Below, piece after piece: positions 2,815-16,907 of a DNA stretch of 64,000 bases (its first letter is position 1; every line of letters starts with the position of its first letter). The DNA is taken from the IMG/VR virus record IMGVR_UViG_3300032313_000518, positions 1-64,000 of that record, one strand, 5' to 3'. The translations under genes and the position numbers were made by a program. The stretch is from a virus. The notes under the pieces were generated by a model that did not search any database, had not been told where the DNA came from, and saw nothing but the letters and a program-made list of their open reading frames with translations.

Positions 2815-2833
2815 CAATTAATAAATAAAAGAT

Positions 2834-3070
2834 ATGAATACATTAGAAATAGTTGGTTACTTCGCAATGGGTATGAGTGTACTCTCCTTTGCGTTCTCTA
2901 AACAAAAGCTGGTTCGGATAGTAAACTTCTTTGCCTGCTTAGTTTGGGTTTGGTATGGGTTTCTAATTCAGAATAACCCTACTATCATTGTAAACGTTAT
3001 GGTATCGATGGTACACCTCTATTGGTTTATTAATCGTTGGTGTAGAATCAGTAAGTTAAATCGTAAATAG
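2834..3070 (+). CDS. small 3-TM membrane protein (YgjV / PQ-loop-like)
   Basis: IVGYFA..SVLSF...VRIVN..AC..WVWYGFLI...P.II.N pattern. Confidence 0.6.
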   Translation: MNTLEIVGYFAMGMSVLSFAFSKQKLVRIVNFFACLVWVWYGFLIQNNPTIIVNVMVSMVHLYWFINRWCRISKLNRK

Positions 3071-3073
3071 GAT

Positions 3074-3361
3074 ATGCTAACGATACATAATTACAAAAAG
3101 CTGGAAGGCCAAAAGACCGGAGTAGGTAATTGGTATGTTGGTGCTATCTGGGAACAAAATAAAGAGTATGCAATAAACCTACGCTCACCCGAACACCAAG
3201 AGACTGTATATCTAAGTAGGATTGCTAAAGAATATCCCGATGGTAGGAAGGTGTACCAATACTATGATAGATTGGGTAGTGTTACTCTACGGAGTGTAAC
3301 CATTGATTTTATAAAAACTCAATCTAACTTATTACGTTCACTTAAATCATTTTGTTTATAG
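3074..3361 (+). CDS. MLTIxN-family paralog 1
   Basis: Begins MLTIHNYKKL; shares W/Y/R pattern with other members. Confidence 0.8.
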   Translation: MLTIHNYKKLEGQKTGVGNWYVGAIWEQNKEYAINLRSPEHQETVYLSRIAKEYPDGRKVYQYYDRLGSVTLRSVTIDFIKTQSNLLRSLKSFCL

Positions 3362-3365
3362 GATT

Positions 3366-3656
3366 ATGCTAACGATACGGAACTACCATAGATTATGTGA
3401 TAAACCCATTGGAGGGGATGGATGGAAAGTCCTATTTTGTGCGGAGGGGGATAACCACTACGAAATTAAATTAGTGTGTGTGGGTAAAACATCCGTAACT
3501 ATATTTTTGGAACGTAACGCCGAAAGGGCAAACGATGGTAGGATGGCATATATGTTTAAGGATAGGGATGGTGAGGGAGATAGTGTGGGTGTAACTGCGG
3601 ATTGGATTGCGGATATGGATAACATGCTAAAGATATTAGACGGATTTACATTTTAA
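3366..3656 (+). CDS. MLTIxN-family paralog 2
   Basis: Begins MLTIRNYHRL; aligns end to end with paralog 1 (DGR..Y...DR.G...VT.D.I). Confidence 0.8.
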   Translation: MLTIRNYHRLCDKPIGGDGWKVLFCAEGDNHYEIKLVCVGKTSVTIFLERNAERANDGRMAYMFKDRDGEGDSVGVTADWIADMDNMLKILDGFTF

Positions 3657-3659
3657 GAT

Positions 3660-4181
3660 ATGAAACAACGAAAGAAGAGTTTTAAAGAGTTATTGGATTA
3701 CATATGTGAATCCAAAATCATGTTGGAACAAAACCCAAATCTATATAGGTTTATTATAGATGGGGTTCGAAACAACATATTCTATATGACATCTACCAAT
3801 GAGTTCTTTACCGGAAAATATTCCTTTGAAGCCTTTGACTGGATACGAAGTGGGGGTAAGATATCGGAGTTGTGTAAGGAGCATCACTATTCTCTAAAGC
3901 GATTGTGTACCGAAATTATGTATTCAAACCTAAGTAGGGATGTGATATCGGATATGATTAAATCCAAAGGAACATTTAACCTAACTACAAAGGATGAGAA
4001 TCATATACTAAAAAGAAATAGACAATCTTATGAAAAGAGCGAAATTACTATAAATACATACAATGGTTGGTTGTGTAAGGAATTGGGTTCATATCCATCA
4101 ACCGAAACGGAGTATGTAGATTCCATACCTGAAATGTATGTTGATTGGATTGAAGAAAAACGAGATACAAGATTCTGGTAA
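3660..4181 (+). CDS. hypothetical protein inserted in paralog array (possible HNH-like nuclease)
   Basis: 173 aa; KEHHY...TTKDENHILK weakly resembles a His-Me nuclease core. Confidence 0.55.
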   Translation: MKQRKKSFKELLDYICESKIMLEQNPNLYRFIIDGVRNNIFYMTSTNEFFTGKYSFEAFDWIRSGGKISELCKEHHYSLKRLCTEIMYSNLSRDVISDMIKSKGTFNLTTKDENHILKRNRQSYEKSEITINTYNGWLCKELGSYPSTETEYVDSIPEMYVDWIEEKRDTRFW

Positions 4182-4182
4182 C

Positions 4183-4500
4183 ATGCTAACCATAAAGAAC
4201 TACAAAAAGATAAAGGATACCGAATTTAGTGTTGGCTTCACCGGTTGGGTGGTAGCCGATATTAGAGAAGAACCTGCATTCTATAAGATAGGGTTTTTCC
4301 CTAAAGTAGATGGGGTATTCGCAATCCATAAGGTAGAGTGGTTATACATATGGAGAAACCTAAGTGAGAATGGGTATGAGTATCAAATTGATTGTATAGG
4401 TTTACCTCTTAGGAAATGGGCGATTCATTATCAATACTTAAAAGACCCAAAAGAATTGATTTACTTTCTTTCAAAACGAATCTTATATAAGTTATGCTAA
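4183..4500 (+). CDS. MLTIxN-family paralog 3
   Basis: Start corrected to ATG 4183 (MLTIKNYKKI). Confidence 0.8.
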   Translation: MLTIKNYKKIKDTEFSVGFTGWVVADIREEPAFYKIGFFPKVDGVFAIHKVEWLYIWRNLSENGYEYQIDCIGLPLRKWAIHYQYLKDPKELIYFLSKRILYKLC

Positions 4501-4844
4501 GGATACAAAATAAGAATAAGTTGGTTGGGGAATCGTTGGTGGTTACGGATGCGGATGGTAATCTAATTGTGTGGATAATTGAAGGAGTGCATGATTATGG
4601 ACCCGATGGTCATTATCAAATCCTATTAAGAACATCCGGCCCACAAGCGAATAAGGTATTCATACTATCCAAGGAGGAGGGGTTTGTGGAGGGAAACGCT
4701 AACTATAAGATTAAGGATGCATTTGAACCATTCAATTCGGTTTGGGTCAATTACTCTAACATAGCTAATATATCATCTATGGTAAGAACATTAAGACGAA
4801 TTATATCACATGCTAACAATCCAAAACGTTCGAAGAGATATTGA
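4494..4844 (+). CDS. MLTIxN-family paralog 4
   Basis: Begins MLRIQNKNKL. Confidence 0.75.
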   Translation: MLRIQNKNKLVGESLVVTDADGNLIVWIIEGVHDYGPDGHYQILLRTSGPQANKVFILSKEEGFVEGNANYKIKDAFEPFNSVWVNYSNIANISSMVRTLRRIISHANNPKRSKRY

Positions 4845-5148
4845 TTATAAGGATGGGTATCAAATTGATGAATTCCAATTGATAGATGGGGGATTATCCG
4901 GCGCTTCTTCTGGGAATTTGGAGAATCCATTCTACACTTTCTATTGGTCTATGTGGGATGATAAGAGACGATTTAAGGTGGTAGTGAAGAGGGAGCCGAT
5001 AGATGAGGTGTACTATCATCTTTGGATTGAGGATTTAAGAATGGATGTTAGGATTCACAATGTTCGGGTTAAGAGTAGCTTGTTTACGGATAGGGAAAGG
5101 TTCTATAAGTGGATGGTGGATAGGATTAGTGATTCACTATCAAATTAA
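4810..5148 (+). CDS. MLTIxN-family paralog 5
   Basis: Begins MLTIQNVRRD. Confidence 0.75.
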   Translation: MLTIQNVRRDIDYKDGYQIDEFQLIDGGLSGASSGNLENPFYTFYWSMWDDKRRFKVVVKREPIDEVYYHLWIEDLRMDVRIHNVRVKSSLFTDRERFYKWMVDRISDSLSN

Positions 5149-5210
5149 ACGTTTACCAAAAAAATCTTAAATTCGACACGAAGGAGAGTGGGTGATATAA
5201 TTAAACTGAT

Positions 5211-5555
5211 ATGCTAACAATAAAGAACATTAAATCACTAAAAGGAACTCAATGTAATGGGTGGATAATTAAATTTATTAGTGAAGGTATCTATTTATAC
5301 GATGATGATGATTTGAACATTATTCAAACGGAATACTATTCGATTACATTTGTATCGGGGTTGGGTTCGAACATAGGTAGGATACTCATTGGTAGAGAAT
5401 ACGATACAGCGTATAAAACACAATATAGGTATATACTTTATTTGAATCAAAAGAAGTTCGATACCGGTGGGATAAGTAAATATGGGTTGCAAGATAAGGA
5501 TGGGTTTATCCAATCCGTAGTAGATACATTGGATTATCAATTAAAAAATAAATAA
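5211..5555 (+). CDS. MLTIxN-family paralog 6
   Basis: Begins MLTIKNIKSLKG..NGW. Confidence 0.8.
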   Translation: MLTIKNIKSLKGTQCNGWIIKFISEGIYLYDDDDLNIIQTEYYSITFVSGLGSNIGRILIGREYDTAYKTQYRYILYLNQKKFDTGGISKYGLQDKDGFIQSVVDTLDYQLKNK

Positions 5556-5680
5556 GATATGAAACCATTTTTAAACAATTTACTATTACTATCATCTATT
5601 ACCTTTATATGGGTAATGGTATTTCCATTTTGGGTTATTAAAGAAATTATATTTAGAATTAAAAACAATAAACATACGCT

Positions 5681-5944
5681 ATGAAAGAATTTAAAGATTT
5701 AGAATTTAAGGAATTACCCGATGGTAGTGGTATATACTCCCGCACTATGTTTAAAAACGGATTTGGTTCAAGTGTAATAAGACACAAATACTCATATGGA
5801 GGAAAGGATGGATTGTATGAGTTAGCAGTATTGGATACCGATGGTGAATTACATTACGATAATCCAGTTGCCGAAGGTGATGTACATGGTTATTTAACTG
5901 AAGATGATGTTACCGAATTACTAAAGAGAATCCAGCTACTATAA
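5681..5944 (+). CDS. conserved phage hypothetical protein
   Basis: FKNGFGSSVIRH.YSYGG..GLYELAVL motif, common in phage small proteins. Confidence 0.75.
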   Translation: MKEFKDLEFKELPDGSGIYSRTMFKNGFGSSVIRHKYSYGGKDGLYELAVLDTDGELHYDNPVAEGDVHGYLTEDDVTELLKRIQLL

Positions 5945-5945
5945 A

Positions 5946-6326
5946 ATGCTAACAATACAAAACTTTGAGGAACGATTGACTCCTTTAATTTTCAAAGCCA
6001 GCTTTTTAGGTTGGTACATAATGGATGCAGTTGAAATATACAATGATTACTATCTTATACAATTACAAAAGAATTCGACAGATGATTTTAATTGGGTTGC
6101 TCTTTGGTTAGATAAAGAGGTTGATACCGATTTTCCAAATGATGATGATTCCGATGGTATGTATAAACTTAAATTTGTAGGTGAAGATGGGATAGTTATA
6201 TACGAACATTGGTTATCTCATAAATGGTTAAAGAAAACAACCGCCATCGGATTTATGAATAAGATGGCTAATATTATTGAGAGTTTTGTAATTAAACATC
6301 CAAACAATAAATGGCCAGTAGTATGA
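5946..6326 (+). CDS. MLTIxN-family paralog 7
   Basis: Begins MLTIQNFEER...GWYI. Confidence 0.75.
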   Translation: MLTIQNFEERLTPLIFKASFLGWYIMDAVEIYNDYYLIQLQKNSTDDFNWVALWLDKEVDTDFPNDDDSDGMYKLKFVGEDGIVIYEHWLSHKWLKKTTAIGFMNKMANIIESFVIKHPNNKWPVV

Positions 6327-6610
6327 AACTAACTATAAAGAACTACGATAAGATTATAGGTTGTGTTGTGGGTAAGTACCAAGTTGCACAAGTCAGACAA
6401 TTGAGTAAGTTGTATGAGATTGCCTTTAGAGGTAAGAATCGAAGATACCATAAGATTGTAACCATATATAGAGAACCATTGGAGGAATACGAACAATCAG
6501 TTTACAAAGTAGTATGTAGTGGTAGGTGGACAACTATTTGGAATATTACATTAAAGGATAAGATTGCTACCTTACAATATATTTCACATTGGCTTGAAAA
6601 TTTATTGTAA
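6323..6610 (+). CDS. MLTIxN-family paralog 8
   Basis: Start corrected to ATG 6323 (MKLTIKNYDKI), ATGA overlap with previous stop. Confidence 0.75.
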   Translation: MKLTIKNYDKIIGCVVGKYQVAQVRQLSKLYEIAFRGKNRRYHKIVTIYREPLEEYEQSVYKVVCSGRWTTIWNITLKDKIATLQYISHWLENLL

Positions 6611-6614
6611 ATAA

Positions 6615-6646
6615 TTAGGAAATGTGGGTTTTTTTACTTACCTTTA
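6615..6646 (+). promoter_or_regulatory. early promoter TTAG-N20-TACCTTTA
   Basis: TTAG 6615-6618, TACCTTTA 6639-6646; C-tract before ATG 6672. Confidence 0.8.
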
Positions 6647-6671
6647 TTCTATAATTAAAACCCCCAATAGT

Positions 6672-7334
6672 ATGAAGATTATTTTGAATAAAGGTCAAAA
6701 GTTGTGGTTCACTTCCGATACCCACTTTAATCACTCAAATATTTGTAGAGGCACTACCGAATGGGATAAGAGCAAACCGAATCACTTTAGAGATTTCTAT
6801 ACTTTGGGTGAGATGAACGATAGGTTAGTTGCTGGTATCAATGCAGCAGTTGGTGAGAACGATATTTTATTCCACTTAGGAGATTGGTCTTTTGGTGGGT
6901 TCGAATCTATTAGAGAGTTTCGTAGCAGATTGAATTGTAAGAACATCCATTTAGTATTAGGAAACCACGACCACCACATTGGAAGAAATAAAGATGGGGT
7001 GCAGGATTGTTTCATTAGTGTAAACCATTTAGTTAATTTAGTTGTTAAGTGGAATATAGGAACTCTAAATCAAAAGGAAGCACAATTTGTGTTGATGCAC
7101 TTTCCAATTGCTAGTTGGGAAAATTTAGGTAAAGGTGTTATTCACTTACATGGACACGTTCACTTACCTAACCATCGTAGAGTTGGTAGTGGTAAAATTA
7201 TGGATGTGGGAGTTGATGGAAATGGGTTGAATCCAATCAGTTTAGAGGAGGTATTGAGTATTATGGAGAAACAACCAATCGGTAGTATGATGCCAAATGA
7301 CCACCACACTATTGTAGAAAATTATTTAAGATAA
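6672..7334 (+). CDS. calcineurin-like metallophosphoesterase
   Basis: SDTHFNH, HLGDW, GNHD, HLHGHVH, DVGVD motifs; start corrected to 6672. Confidence 0.9.
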   Translation: MKIILNKGQKLWFTSDTHFNHSNICRGTTEWDKSKPNHFRDFYTLGEMNDRLVAGINAAVGENDILFHLGDWSFGGFESIREFRSRLNCKNIHLVLGNHDHHIGRNKDGVQDCFISVNHLVNLVVKWNIGTLNQKEAQFVLMHFPIASWENLGKGVIHLHGHVHLPNHRRVGSGKIMDVGVDGNGLNPISLEEVLSIMEKQPIGSMMPNDHHTIVENYLR

Positions 7335-7338
7335 AATT

Positions 7339-7755
7339 ATGATACCAAAAATATTAACATTAGTAAGAGGATTGCCAGGTAGTGGTAAATCAACATTCGC
7401 CAATACTATTACAAATAAATTTTCAATATGTGAAGCTGATAAGTTTTTTTATGATAAGGAAGGTAACTATAACTTTGATGGTTCTAAATTGAGGCAAGCG
7501 CATGAATGGTGTAGAAACCAAGTTGAGACTCGTATGAAAGATAACCAATTAAATCCTCAATTTTATCCAGAGATTGTAGTATCAAATACATTTACGCAAG
7601 AGTGGGAAATGGAAGCATACTATAAGTTAGCAGAACAATACGGATATAAAGTATTCAGTATTATTGTTGAGAATAGACATGGTGGTGTGAATGAGCACGG
7701 AGTACCTGCTGATAAGTTAGAACAAATGCGTAATAGATTTGAAGTAAAATTATGA
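7339..7755 (+). CDS. P-loop kinase (polynucleotide kinase / AAA_33-like)
   Basis: RGLPGSGKST Walker A; EAD; AHEWC; VVSNTFTQ.WEM; HGVP. Confidence 0.85.
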   Translation: MIPKILTLVRGLPGSGKSTFANTITNKFSICEADKFFYDKEGNYNFDGSKLRQAHEWCRNQVETRMKDNQLNPQFYPEIVVSNTFTQEWEMEAYYKLAEQYGYKVFSIIVENRHGGVNEHGVPADKLEQMRNRFEVKL

Positions 7756-8924
7756 AATACGATTTAGAAGTTTTATCGGATTATATCAATAGAGGTTTGG
7801 TGATTAAACAAAATCATCCTACACTACCTTTATCTATATACAACTATTCCCGTGAATGCCAATACAATGGTATGTGGGATGATATTACTTTGAATTGCAG
7901 AGGATTGGTTTTGGATAACGAAGGTAATGTTGTTGCTAAACCTTTTCCAAAGTTCTTTAACTACGAAGAGCACAAACCAGAGGATATCCCAAATGAAAAC
8001 TTTGAGGTTTATGAGAAGATGGATGGTTCATTGGGTATATTCTTTTACTATGAGGAAGAGTTGAGTGATGAAAGAAGATATAACATATGGTTTAATAACA
8101 ATTACGAAACAGGTATGGAAAGGTTCTTTGACCCAAACAACTTACCCAACTTCGATGACCCATACTATGAACCTACACCAAAAATAAAAGGTGAATGGCA
8201 TATGGCAACTCGTGGTTCATTTACTTCCGAACAAGCAATCAAAGGCATGGAGATTGCAAAGAGATACAACTACGATAAGAAATGCGTACCTGGCTACACA
8301 TACCTTTTTGAAATCATTTATCCTGAAAATCGTATAGTTGTGGATTATGGAAAGGAAGAGCGATTGGTATTATTAGGTGTGATGAATCGAAGAGGTGAAG
8401 AGTTTCCTTATGAAGAGCTTGTGGAAGATGGTTGGGATATCGTAATGAAGTATAAGACTTGGGGAGAAGATTGGGAAACTTTGAAAAAAGAAATATCCAA
8501 AGACAATGAAGGATATGTAATTCGTTTTTCAGGCGGTATGCGAATGAAGATTAAAGGTGATGAGTATGTTCGTCTACATAGAATCTTAACTAATTTTTCC
8601 ACCAAAGATATATGGGAACTGTTAAGAAATAACGAACAGTTAGAACCATTTTTGGAAAGAGTACCTGATGAGTTTGATGTTTGGGTAAGGGAAGTTGTTA
8701 GGGATTTACAAACTCAATATAATACCATCTTAAACGATTACCGAACTATTTTATTTAATATATGGCATCCTGATAAGAAGGTATTTGCCGAATACGCTAA
8801 AAGATATCCACACCCATCTTTGTTGTTTGCTTTGTACGATGGTAAGAATGAATCTGCATATGATTACGTTTGGAAAATGATTAAACCAAAGTATGAAAAA
8901 CCTTTCAAAAAAGATGAAAAATAA
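7752..8924 (+). CDS. RNA ligase, T4 Rnl1 (RnlA) family
   Basis: CRGLVLD, PF.KFFNY.E, motif I EKMDGS, ATRGSF, FEII.PENRIVV.Y, EGYV, KIK. Confidence 0.9.
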   Translation: MKYDLEVLSDYINRGLVIKQNHPTLPLSIYNYSRECQYNGMWDDITLNCRGLVLDNEGNVVAKPFPKFFNYEEHKPEDIPNENFEVYEKMDGSLGIFFYYEEELSDERRYNIWFNNNYETGMERFFDPNNLPNFDDPYYEPTPKIKGEWHMATRGSFTSEQAIKGMEIAKRYNYDKKCVPGYTYLFEIIYPENRIVVDYGKEERLVLLGVMNRRGEEFPYEELVEDGWDIVMKYKTWGEDWETLKKEISKDNEGYVIRFSGGMRMKIKGDEYVRLHRILTNFSTKDIWELLRNNEQLEPFLERVPDEFDVWVREVVRDLQTQYNTILNDYRTILFNIWHPDKKVFAEYAKRYPHPSLLFALYDGKNESAYDYVWKMIKPKYEKPFKKDEK

Positions 8925-8935
8925 TTGATAAAAAG

Positions 8936-8967
8936 CTTGTATATGTCAATCTTTTTACTTACCTTTA
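8936..8967 (+). promoter_or_regulatory. early promoter CTTG-N20-TACCTTTA
   Basis: CTTG 8936-8939, TACCTTTA 8960-8967. Confidence 0.8.
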
Positions 8968-9067
8968 CTGTGTACTAAGAGATACACACTATGAAAGTTT
9001 TATTATTTGATTCGGTTTGGTTTGGTTTGAGAGTGTTAAAAATGTTAGGATACTAAACAATAGACAT

Positions 9068-13646: not shown

Positions 13647-16600
13647 TTAGTTAAATAGGTATCTTACACCCAATTGAATTTGGTAGCGAGAACCAAATCC
13701 TACGTTATCTCTGAATGAATCAGTAAACGGAACTTTGTTTCTTCCATCCAAATAAGGGAATGAGAAGATTGGTGTTTTACCATCAGTATCCAATTTAACA
13801 AAGTTAAGAGGAGTGATTGTTGTAGGTAATTGTTGAACACCTAATTTGCTACTAATAAAGTTTGTGAAGTTATATACATCAGCAGTAAAACGCAATGTAT
13901 GCTTTATAGCTCCAACTTTAATGTAAACGTCTTGCGTTAAATTCAAATCTAATCTATGAACCCACGGAAGAACCAATGCTTGTCTTTCCGCCATCATACC
14001 TCTACGAGTTGAAAGGTAAGGATTGTTTGAAATGAAAGCATCCAATTGAGACCATAATTCAGCTTGTGTTCTTGTATCAGCTACACCACTTACCGCAGAT
14101 GCATTAGTTAATTTAATTTGAGATGCATCTTTAGGAACGAAGATTATATCGTTACCATTGAAACCATCGTTATTCAAATCACCACCATATGTGTATGAAA
14201 GAGATGCCTGTGGAGCATTTGGTGAAGCCTCATATAATAAACCAATTGAAGTTTTTGTATTCTTAATAAACTCTTTACCATAATTCACACTTGCAATAAT
14301 TCTATGTGGTAAGTAGTTGTTTGAAAAACCTGCTTCAAAGTTGTTAGGGTCAGTACCAGTCGGTCTAGCTCCCCACATTGTAAATGCAGTAGAACCATTG
14401 ATTGTTGCATCTACTGCCGTTTGACGAGTATAAGAAGCGTTTACACCTAAGTTATTGAATTGTCTTTGGATTTGTAATGTTCCAAATAAAGTATGGCCAA
14501 TGTTTGCATTAGTCATATAGATTGCGTTACCAATGTTTGGATTTTGTGGAGTTTGAGCTGCACCAACCGCATCATATACCGAACGTTTAACAAAACGAGT
14601 TCTACCATCACTTAATGTTGTGTTACCCTCCGAAGGTAATGCAACGTTTTGGAAAACAGTAGCGTTGATATTTTGGATATAAGTTCCCTCCGCAGTTACG
14701 GTCCAACCTAATACTTTCTTATCAACTGCTAATGTAGATTTCCAAACCTGTGGGAATTTATAATTAGGGTCAGTTACGTTAAGAGAATATGATTTGGATA
14801 AACCTGGCGTTGGAGTTGGTCTATACTTATCAATATCCGGTGAGAACACATATCCAGTTCCATTTGTAATAGAGCCAAATAATGCCATACCACTATTAGA
14901 TGCCTGATTTGAAATCCATACAAATGGCGGAGGTCCTTGGAATAAACCAGTACCACCTCGTATTTGTAAAGTTTGGTCATCATTCACATCCCAGTTAAAT
15001 CCAACTCTTGGTGATATTTGTAGTGAAGCAGATGGTGCTAAACCTGTGTTTAATTTCGTACCATTATAGAACTTATCTAAACCTGCAACTACTGGATTGA
15101 AAAGGAAGTTATCAGCAAACGAAACATAATCAGCTCTAATACCATATGTTAAAGTTAGATTATCTTTTATTCTAAACTTATCCTGCGCAAATAAACTCAA
15201 CTCCGTATTCTTTGGTCCAACCAAAGGAAACCCACCACTCAATGAATATGATAAATCATAGAATGCTGCTGGTTTTGTTCCTGCTGCCGAAGCGTAGAAA
15301 TCTGCTAAACTATTGAAACGATACGCACCTGCGAATGAAGGTGAGAAACCATTTGAATAAGTTTTGAATGAGTTTTGTGTACCAAATGTAAATTCGTGCT
15401 TACCTTTATATAAGTTGAAAATGTTATTAATTTGGATTACATCACTATTTAATACGTTACCATATGTAAATCTTTCATAACCAAATGTTGTATAAGGTAA
15501 ACCATTACCATCTAAGATATCCACTTGTGGGAAATTACCAACACTTAAAGGTGCTCTATAATCTCTCAATTGAGTATATCCAATTTGTAATTTATTATTT
15601 GCTGAATTAGAGAAACGAGTATTCAATTCACCAATTAAGATATCCGCATCATTGTTGATAACATAACCACTACCAAAGAAAGGCATTGCGGTGTTACCCG
15701 GTCTTCTACCATTTGATGAGTTGATTGAACCACTATTAGATGCTGGGATATCTGCTGAAGAACGTAACATTGTATATTTCAATGAGAACGAATTCTTTGC
15801 ATTAATATTCCAATCCAACTTTGTAGTTAATCTTTGTGATTTAGAACCATACTGATAACCCTGATATGAACCCGGATTATAATTGTATTTATCGATTAAG
15901 AATTTTTGTAAAGCATCTAAATCAGCTGCTTTAGCTTGTGAGATATTGATACCATTGGGATTGTTGTTAGCATCAGATGCTGTCCATTGTGTACCCGGCT
16001 CCATTCTTTCTTCTTGCTCTCCGTTTAGGAAGAAGAACAACTTATCCTTAACAATCGCACCACCTGTGGTGAAACCTTTAAGGTCATATGTAAATGGTTG
16101 TTGTGGTAAAGTGATATCACCCACCTTATAACCTTGTAAATCTTTATTCTTAAAATATTGGTAAACCGAACCAAATGCCTGATTCTTACCACTACGAGTT
16201 ACTGTATTCACCGAGCCACCTGCGAATCCACCATACTTAACATCAAAAGGAGAAACGTTTACTTGAATTTGTTCAATCGCATCCAATGAGATTGGTTGTG
16301 CTCCCGTCTGTCCTCCCAATGTTCCATCACCCAATCCAAATGAGTTATTGAAGTTCGCACCATCCAATGTTACGTTGTTCAATTGAGAACTCATACCGCC
16401 AAACGATAAGTTGTTTTGCGATGGTACTAATTTAACTAAATCTTTCCAACTACGATTTACGTTTGGTACTGATTCGATTAATCTTCTATTGATAATCTCC
16501 TGCGAACCATTACGGCTTGAGTTGAAAACTTTGTTTTGACCTGATACAACTACAACTTCATTTAACGTAGTAGATGATTCCACTAAATTAAAATTAGCTT

Positions 16601-16907
16601 TGTGTGTCTGTCCTAACAATAATGTAATATCATTTTGTGTTTCGGTTTTGTAACCTACAAATGATACTGTCACTACATACGGTCCTCCAATTTTTAAGTT
16701 TGGTAGGTTATATCTTCCATCAGCACGAGTGGTTGTACCATACTTCGTACCGGTTGGTTGATGGGTAGCTTGTACAGTTGCACCTGCAATAGCTTCCTTA
16801 CCTGCCAAAACATTCCCTTGAATTTCTGATGTAGTTTCTTGTGCTTTTGCTACAAATGTTGATACGAATACCAACAAAAGTAACATTAGATTTTTTAACT
16901 TTCTCAT
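13647..16907 (-). CDS. TonB-dependent outer-membrane receptor (Oar-like, N-terminal carboxypeptidase-regulatory-like domain)
   Basis: Signal peptide; GATV.ATH.PTGT.YGT.T.ADGRY; plug PISLDAIEQIQV..SPFDV..GGF.GG.VN.VT.SG.N; SPRVGFNWD; C-terminal QLGVRYLFN. Confidence 0.92.
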   Translation of the reverse strand: MRKLKNLMLLLLVFVSTFVAKAQETTSEIQGNVLAGKEAIAGATVQATHQPTGTKYGTTTRADGRYNLPNLKIGGPYVVTVSFVGYKTETQNDITLLLGQTHKANFNLVESSTTLNEVVVVSGQNKVFNSSRNGSQEIINRRLIESVPNVNRSWKDLVKLVPSQNNLSFGGMSSQLNNVTLDGANFNNSFGLGDGTLGGQTGAQPISLDAIEQIQVNVSPFDVKYGGFAGGSVNTVTRSGKNQAFGSVYQYFKNKDLQGYKVGDITLPQQPFTYDLKGFTTGGAIVKDKLFFFLNGEQEERMEPGTQWTASDANNNPNGINISQAKAADLDALQKFLIDKYNYNPGSYQGYQYGSKSQRLTTKLDWNINAKNSFSLKYTMLRSSADIPASNSGSINSSNGRRPGNTAMPFFGSGYVINNDADILIGELNTRFSNSANNKLQIGYTQLRDYRAPLSVGNFPQVDILDGNGLPYTTFGYERFTYGNVLNSDVIQINNIFNLYKGKHEFTFGTQNSFKTYSNGFSPSFAGAYRFNSLADFYASAAGTKPAAFYDLSYSLSGGFPLVGPKNTELSLFAQDKFRIKDNLTLTYGIRADYVSFADNFLFNPVVAGLDKFYNGTKLNTGLAPSASLQISPRVGFNWDVNDDQTLQIRGGTGLFQGPPPFVWISNQASNSGMALFGSITNGTGYVFSPDIDKYRPTPTPGLSKSYSLNVTDPNYKFPQVWKSTLAVDKKVLGWTVTAEGTYIQNINATVFQNVALPSEGNTTLSDGRTRFVKRSVYDAVGAAQTPQNPNIGNAIYMTNANIGHTLFGTLQIQRQFNNLGVNASYTRQTAVDATINGSTAFTMWGARPTGTDPNNFEAGFSNNYLPHRIIASVNYGKEFIKNTKTSIGLLYEASPNAPQASLSYTYGGDLNNDGFNGNDIIFVPKDASQIKLTNASAVSGVADTRTQAELWSQLDAFISNNPYLSTRRGMMAERQALVLPWVHRLDLNLTQDVYIKVGAIKHTLRFTADVYNFTNFISSKLGVQQLPTTITPLNFVKLDTDGKTPIFSFPYLDGRNKVPFTDSFRDNVGFGSRYQIQLGVRYLFN

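Follow-up and report, generated by a model that had tools for sequence, protein, structure and literature searches.

Modules of T4-type phage genomes are shuffled at repeated promoter-stem-loop (PeSL) motifs (PMC2839356, PMC4122927), and phage T4 itself rearranges through microhomologies of 6-10 bp (PMC9391042), its counter-defence gene tifA being amplified in this microhomology-driven manner (Srikant et al. 2022, PMC9391042). The stretch of viral DNA analysed here, positions 1-64,000 of record IMGVR_UViG_3300032313_000518 (the 64,000-nt window; the full record, G000, has 110,968 bases), carries across positions 3074-6610 a tandem array of eight small genes, named p1 to p8 from 5' to 3' and all on the + strand, which open with a common 18-nt motif. 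We give somewhat better than even chances to the reading that these genes are old paralogs of an unannotated family, that their cassettes are exchanged at the 5' motif, and that their products form a repertoire of binders.

The shuffling at PeSLs in hyperplastic regions (Arbiol et al. 2010, PMC2839356; Comeau et al. 2014, PMC4122927) resembles the situation described below in that it concerns small accessory open reading frames (ORFs) in a variable region of T4-like genomes, and in that the junctions of indels and replacements fall in a short repeated motif. However, a PeSL is a non-coding promoter plus stem-loop that flanks unrelated ORFans, whereas here the motif lies within the genes, as the opening 18 nt, from the ATG on, of the coding sequences of a single paralogous family. 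An early promoter with a terminator stem-loop does not recur as the repeated unit of the array, which holds one promoter-like hairpin (5596-5619). The new element is that the repeated motif found at the junctions is the coding start of a paralogous family.

The proteins encoded by the eight genes start M(K)L(T/R)IxN. All eight ORFs proposed by the initial annotation, which was made from the sequence alone, are found at their proposed starts on the + strand, two of these (4183 and 6323) being internal ATGs of longer listed ORFs. ATGCTAA opens seven of the eight, as had been noticed, and p8 differs, opening with ATGAAACTAA, which reads ATG AAA CTA ACT. The consensus of the motif is ATG CTA ACA ATA AAR AAC; an example lies at 3074..3091, and the other copies, all on the + strand, begin at 3366, 4183, 4494, 4810, 5211, 5946 and 6326. 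The exact string ATGCTAACNATH occurs at family starts only, both in the 110,968-base record, where these eight are the only copies of the family, and in a 188-kb relative.

This stretch is conserved as DNA. When one representative is taken from each of 60 groups clustered at 45% identity, and the bodies of the same genes serve as background, Leu2 is encoded by CTA in 32/54 groups (background 0.13, p = 2e-15), Thr3 by ACA in 32/38 (background 0.42, p = 1e-7), Ile4 by ATA in 51/59 (background 0.57, p = 1e-6) and Asn6 by AAC in 34/57 (background 0.26, p = 9e-8). As a control, the body residues Y32, L48, R50 and Y62, conserved to an equal degree, are at background codon usage (p = 0.07-0.28), and internal Met-Leu pairs use CTA in 3 of 26 instances. 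The sequence 5' of the ATG is not conserved, and conservation begins exactly at the ATG. The first six codons are thus conserved at synonymous sites, and this bias at the start, together with the background codons of the body, indicates a constraint or a homogenising process confined to the first ~18 bases. The C-terminal 'NMLK' of p2 was considered as a further copy of the start motif and discarded, the resemblance being a single case.

Related loci were sought in two ways. A search with p2 alone gave one relative, and a degenerate DNA pattern for MLTIKNY, with the Leu codon left free, yielded 119 stretches of viral contigs; these and L001, the locus of a close relative contained in a 188-kb record (G001) rated 97% complete, make up 120 fetched loci, in 16 of which the family is present and in 104 absent. 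Three blocks of the window, 2820-3094, 3365-4193 and 4810-9000, align with L001, and the two loci differ by indels that comprise p1 (3074-3365) and p3 plus p4 (4183-4809), with junctions at 3074/3366 and 4183/4810. Each indel has a copy of the motif at either end, and there the neighbouring blocks overlap the motif by 11-21 nt. The cassette order of the window, p1, p2, a 173-aa ORF, p3, p4, p5, p6, an 87-aa ORF, p7 and p8, is therefore reduced in L001, which lacks p1 and p3+p4, to p2, the 173-aa ORF, p5, p6, the 87-aa ORF, p7 and p8. L052 and L019 combined read p1 g19 p2 g9 p5 g12 g27 p6 p7 p8, and L058 reads g19 p2 g47 p3 g9 p6 g46, the g numbers denoting other cassettes, while g23 and g24 are ordered differently in L078 and L120. 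Arrays of related phages, the comparison of which the initial annotation had proposed, thus differ in the cassettes that they hold and in the order of these. Single cassettes recur beside new neighbours, and the homology then extends from their ATG as far as about +17 of the following gene. Of the 120 block ends counted inside arrays, 69 fall in the interval from -12 to +35 relative to a family ATG, against ~14% expected, and since the counted ends of high-scoring segment pairs are not independent, only the direction of the effect is taken from this count, not a p-value.

The block formed by p6 and the 87-aa ORF also stands out in its similarity. Positions 5211-5981 of the window share 79% DNA identity with 11728-12515 of L058. 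At the protein level the 87-aa product is 92% identical, against only 55% for the kinase and RNA ligase next to the block, a difference that suggests lateral transfer of the block.

The age of the paralogs separates this array from gene accordions. The tifA amplification and the accordions of poxvirus type are alike in consisting of tandem copies of a small gene that are made or removed at short repeats, but those copies are recent, near-identical and derived from one gene, whereas here identities are 14-35% and the ortholog groups are separate, each paralog having its own orthologs in other phages. The ratio of nonsynonymous to synonymous substitution rates (dN/dS), calculated between each window gene and its L001 ortholog, is 0.14 for p5, 0.08 for p6, 0.17 for p7 and 0.08 for p8, and neighbouring genes range from 0.02 to 0.22. 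For p2 (3366-3656 against 10001-10291 of L001) it is 0.85, and the gene is a mosaic, its first 63 residues showing 4 differences and its last 33 showing 15; with 15 of 19 differences so placed, p2 looks like a swapped allele rather than a case of general positive selection. Among 31 p2 orthologs, the variable sites are those of two loops, 50-59 and 67-73, together with some positions in the C-terminal helix. The low identity, the separate ortholog groups and the purifying selection together point to old paralogs and not to a recent accordion. The proposal of a recent accordion under diversifying selection is not supported by these values, four of the five pairs having dN/dS of 0.08-0.17.

Homology of the eight genes extends beyond the motif. 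Their alignment shows 14-35% identity to p1, with a lowest pairwise identity of 14%, and M1, L2, I4, N6, Y32 and Y61 are invariant. Leave-one-out hidden Markov models (HMMs), made from just the eight after trimming of their first 9-10 aa, recover p1, p2, p3, p4 and p6 (E 2e-6 to 5e-3) and miss p5, p7 and p8. In profile-profile comparisons that use subfamily profiles made from outside relatives, with the first ten residues removed, p3, p4, p6 and p7 match the p2 group at 90-94% probability, and p5 (92%) and p8 (91%) match the rest of the family. These matches indicate that all eight genes are homologous along the body, and by this sequence evidence over their whole length. Over an alignment of 125 members, L2 is conserved at 99%, I4 at 98%, N6 at 96%, Y32 at 100%, R50 at 95% and Y62 at 94%, and W20, E27 and L48 at 68-80%, so that the faint downstream pattern reported at first, which includes a C-terminal helix, is real.

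The AlphaFold2 model of p2, for which this 125-sequence alignment was the input, has a mean predicted local distance difference test score (pLDDT) of 94.7 and a predicted template modelling score (pTM) of 0.84, and consists of a short helix (7-10), five to six antiparallel strands and C-terminal helices; residues 1-10 have a mean pLDDT of 96. The model of p5 (pLDDT 82.4, pTM 0.77) has the same order of helices and strands, the order of secondary-structure elements being the basis on which likeness was judged. The predicted structures of these two members are hence not unrelated beyond the first six residues, and both retrieve the same weakly similar entries of the PDB, in agreement with the single small fold that had been supposed. 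The models describe one predicted alpha/beta fold, with a short N-terminal segment and helix, a five- to six-stranded antiparallel sheet and a C-terminal helix. Foldseek searches of the models against PDB and BFVD gave no match below E 1e-3. In an exhaustive structural scan the best Z score was 6.1 for p2 (root-mean-square deviation 3.6, 82 residues aligned) and 7.5 for p5 (3.2, 93 aligned), with 3-17% identity in the listed alignments. Entries common to both scans are Mediator subunits, Knl1 RWD, Ctf19-Mcm21, the type III secretion chaperones SycH and ExsC, and DR_1245, and Spc24/25 is matched by the p5 model only; the listed matches include PDB 4nf9, 3vza, 1ttw, 3kxy and 4h5b, and for Mediator 7emf_Q and 5n9j_A. 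All are protein-binding modules. The RWD, Spc24-Spc25 and type III secretion chaperone-like folds share with the models an N-terminal helix, an antiparallel sheet and a C-terminal helix, but the match is weak, and as the Z scores lie within the range that the tool calls common, the likeness to RWD- or chaperone-type modules suggests only a general alpha-beta-alpha arrangement.

As to what the proteins do, it is plausible from their anatomy and setting that they constitute a repertoire of specific binders or inhibitors made early in infection. The features that speak for binding are a conserved core, variable loops and charge (the isoelectric point, pI, ranges from 4.8 to 9.6 among the eight) and the lack of an enzyme-like conserved set of residues; the context adds tight packing, early-promoter-like motifs, accessory-gene surroundings and the weak likeness to protein-binding modules. 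Immunity proteins of polymorphic toxin systems, such as the SUKH superfamily, occur in tandem arrays, as reportedly described by Zhang et al. in 2012. Like the present family, they are small, diverged, non-enzymatic paralogs thought to neutralise different protein targets, but they are bacterial, and the family described here is without a Pfam match. We know of no shared gene-start DNA motif described for arrays of immunity proteins.

The proposed model can then be stated as follows. The eight genes are old paralogs encoding probably non-enzymatic alpha/beta proteins of ~100 residues, individually kept by purifying selection, from which it follows that each probably has a job of its own. Arrays vary from phage to phage because whole one-gene cassettes are gained, lost and reordered, with the junctions in the first ~20 nt of the genes, a stretch that encodes a structural N-terminal element (phi-x-I-x-N). 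Because this 5' stretch is constant at synonymous sites and the junctions fall there, it is read as a patch of homology for cassette exchange: the very active recombination system of the phage would exchange cassettes on the patch, and the exchange itself would keep the patch uniform. The homology, the common predicted fold, the occurrence of arrays in many phages, the synonymous conservation confined to the 5' end and the position of the junctions are observed; from these we infer that recombination at the motif is the cause of cassette turnover. The proteins would act as specific binders (inhibitors, adaptors or immunity-like proteins) of host or defence proteins, and would be made early.

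Several points, besides the non-independence of the block ends, weigh against this model. Where genes are packed tightly, only whole-gene indels survive, so that block ends would to some extent be found at gene starts in any case. The 18-nt patch is short, although longer than the known microhomologies of T4. The function of the proteins is pure inference, and with structural matches as weak as a Z of 7.5 at most, the term 'binder' rests on the lack of enzyme-like features. The input alignment of the p5 model includes the rest of the family, which biases that model towards the family fold. Finally, the synonymous conservation could instead reflect a translation or RNA signal.

This last point leads to the alternative that survives best, namely that the 18-nt motif is an mRNA signal and not a recombination patch, which we consider unlikely but a serious contender. 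In one version, the motif would be an optimised initiation region, A-rich and unstructured, suited to a host that does not use Shine-Dalgarno pairing; the stop contained in its +1 frame (A TGC TAA) would allow any upstream gene to end there and would couple translation. In another, a repressor would bind the motif as its operator and silence the whole family at once. The junctions at gene starts would then reflect only the survival of intact genes. That conservation starts at the ATG and leaves the upstream sequence free fits such a signal, as do the A-rich preferred codons ACA, ATA and AAR, the restriction of the motif to family genes, and the arrangement of upstream ORFs, which end in the TAA of ATG(C/T)TAA in 12/80 cases and 1 nt before the ATG in 27/80. 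However, the two strongest departures from background go to C and not to A or T (CTA over TTA, AAC over AAT), and since TTA gives the same +1 stop, the stop does not explain the C of CTA. Moreover, the protein element is retained in a sister subfamily of G001 (MEKINIEN...) that does not have the DNA motif, and the presence of cassettes in new neighbourhoods reflects real exchange and not only deletion. A search for RegA (PF01818) gave no match in G000 or G001, and the control genomes gave none either.

It could also be argued that the N-terminus is a capsid-targeting sequence, as in the internal proteins of T4, so that the proteins would be packed in the head, trimmed by the prohead protease and injected to disarm defences; this we regard as quite improbable. 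The phage is T4-like and has a T4-type prohead protease, and the internal proteins of T-even phages are a diverse, defence-countering set that shares only the N-terminal targeting sequence (PMC3012670). The T4 proteins IPI, IPII and IPIII are, as here, small and diverse proteins of a T4-type phage with a conserved N-terminus, and their known members counter host defence (PMC3012670), but the proteins of this array have homologous bodies, one predicted fold and no protease site after the motif. The high pLDDT of p2 residues 1-10 suggests a folded segment rather than a free tag. The element phi-x-I-x-N (L2, I4, N6) is kept when 1-3 residues precede it and in the MEKINIEN subfamily, so it does not depend on the exact N-terminus. 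The pattern (L/I/V)xE occurs within residues 3-20 in 30/221 members against 28/221 for a control stretch, and the one enriched site, at E27, sits inside strand 2. A peptide signal would, in addition, leave the conservation at synonymous sites unexplained. The T4-type capsid-targeting signal is therefore disfavoured, the N-terminal element being predicted with high confidence in the p2 model, tolerant of position and without a protease site after it. Of the two roles that the initial annotation had offered for the conserved 5' end, that of a place where cassettes join and are exchanged between phages is supported, while that of a targeting peptide has lost ground on these same observations. The weakest alternative, a chance or convergent N-terminal motif on otherwise unrelated ORFs, could appeal to the pairwise identity down to 14% and to the failure of p5, p7 and p8 in the leave-one-out test, but it is contradicted by the body homology of all eight through subfamily profiles, by the shared order of elements in the p2 and p5 models and by the 143 full-length relatives that the family profile retrieves (see below), and it can be set aside as most improbable.

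A bolder version of the exchange model is possible, though doubtful. Under it, the 18-nt start would be a dedicated cassette-exchange signal, a coding counterpart of PeSLs or of integron attachment sites, kept uniform across a group of uncultured phages, and a pool of dozens of binder cassettes, with one scaffold and many specificities, would be re-dealt on it against variable host defence or surface proteins. If the exchange model is true, a gene repertoire is built and re-dealt with the recombination patch inside the genes, and the same 18 bases both encode a structural element and join cassettes. The family, large, unnamed and confidently foldable, would be a candidate scaffold-plus-variable-surface set for counter-defence or host takeover in phages of Bacteroidota. 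To our knowledge, the anti-defence genes of such phages are almost unknown. As the family is recognisable by its first six codons, a population study of cassette turnover in metagenomes would be straightforward.

The wider family was delimited with profiles. The HMM built from the eight, a search suggested at the outset, retrieves 143 representatives (50% identity clusters) below E 1e-3 among 1.84 billion, nearly all of 90-125 aa, covered end to end and starting MLTI[KQE]N. A larger profile retrieves 481 proteins below E 1e-5 in 5.8 billion, all metagenomic, named 'hypothetical' and devoid of a Pfam domain. Scans of PHROGs and Pfam-A with the eight proteins and all 125 aligned members gave scattered single matches with E above 1e-3, and the sequence-profile search of PDB with the family gave no match. 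Similarly, tblastn of three members against 50,697 cultured-phage records found no match, blastn of the region against cultured phages returned nothing useful, one abundant member had no relative in prokaryote genomes, and the ESM Atlas offered unnamed clusters only, at 0.84 or below. The family, which the initial annotation had not recognised, thus has no match in Pfam, PHROGs and PDB sequences, and no known housekeeping domain emerged.

All 16 loci that bear the family are head-to-tail arrays, with 14 copies in L026, 13 in L078, 9 in L120 and 8 each in L019, L051 and L080, and with 28-36% G+C. The arrays richest in copies lie on contigs of 56-157 kb, and the other family loci on contigs of 23.8-219 kb. 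In general, the family is arranged head to tail, 3-14 genes to an array, in variable regions of phage contigs that are uncultured, low in GC and mostly large. L001 has a second cluster (3576-5488; 154.5-156.4 kb of G001), 5 kb upstream of the syntenic array, with two typical members and three of the diverged subfamily, which start M(EK)KI(N/K)IENPN; hhalign links this MEKINIEN subfamily to the family at 88%. The contig of the window begins too late to reveal whether such a second cluster is present. Other genes found in or beside arrays (L078 9032-9898, L043 3827-4345 and 10-1119, L058 12847-13320) include a UvdE endonuclease, an HAD domain as in the 'Swiss army knife' proteins of RNA repair, next to a gene resembling DNA ligase, and an ORF with weak likeness to GIY-YIG.

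Within the window, p1 (3074..3361, 95 aa, pI 9.4), which has no counterpart at this place in L001, the indel being bounded by the 5' motif, is followed by p2 (3366..3656, 96 aa, pI 5.0), the most typical member, with the C-terminal helix VTADWIxDMDNML. An unrelated 173-aa ORF (3660..4181, +), 94% identical at the aa level in L001 and without a family match, then interrupts the array. The stop of p3 (4183..4500, 105 aa, within the listed ORF 4138-4500) is the TAA within the ATGCTAA of p4 (4494..4844, 116 aa). In turn, p4 continues at its 3' end across the p5 copy of the 5' motif, in a different frame (..SHANNPKRSKRY); its relatives end ..SHANN, and these final codons of p4 (..S H A N N) are the ATGCTAACAAT of the next cassette read in another frame, so the p4 tail varies with its neighbour. 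The most diverged member, p5 (4810..5148, 112 aa), and p6 (5211..5555, 114 aa) are separated from p7 by interrupting ORFs (5559..5944, +), a hydrophobic one of 41 aa (5559-5684) and the 87-aa ORF (5681-5944, phrog_4074, function unknown). Finally, p8 (6323..6610, 95 aa), the MKLTIKN variant within the listed ORF 6311-6610, overlaps the stop of p7 (5946..6326, 126 aa, pI 4.8) as ATGA.

By its gene content, the phage is T4-like: G000 encodes Gp23 (E 3.5e-76), Peptidase_S77, the T4-type prohead protease (E 4.5e-27), a baseplate wedge protein and a T4-type RNA ligase. Neither Gp23 nor Peptidase_S77 was found in the 97% complete G001, which may be a limit of the first-look search. A SusC-like TonB-dependent receptor of 1,085 aa with CarboxypepD_reg, Plug and beta-barrel domains is encoded at 13647-16907 on the - strand, and such a phage-encoded receptor points to a host that is probably from the Bacteroidota.

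An early-promoter-like motif, TTACCTTTA, is present in 15 copies in the window, where 1.9 would be expected; most of them stand upstream of + strand genes within the first 12 kb, with + strand copies at 482, 917, 2060, 5599, 6638, 8959, 9965 and 10239. Those at 2060, 5599 and 6638 flank and interrupt the array, and the copy at 5599 lies within the hairpin mentioned above, in the region of the interrupting ORFs, where it recalls a promoter-stem-loop unit. Downstream of the array are the RNA-repair genes for a phosphoesterase (6624-7334), a kinase (7339-7755) and an RNA ligase (7752-8924). From its place between tRNA mimics and these genes, the array had been taken as part of a counter-defence island; the RNA-repair neighbourhood holds in the close relatives L001, L019 and L058 only and not beyond them, and one distant array holds the HAD domain of RNA-repair type. 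Directly upstream of the array, a 78-aa protein (2834-3070) has a weak match to Imp-YgjV, and proteins related to it at 35-40% identity precede distant arrays in L078, L040 and L106. ARAGORN found no tRNA in the window. Two tRNA-like RNAs are present at 2143-2820, with Rfam tRNA matches at 2506-2606 and 2702-2814, and as L001 has ~200 nt without a counterpart of the stretch that holds them, the pair is itself an indel.

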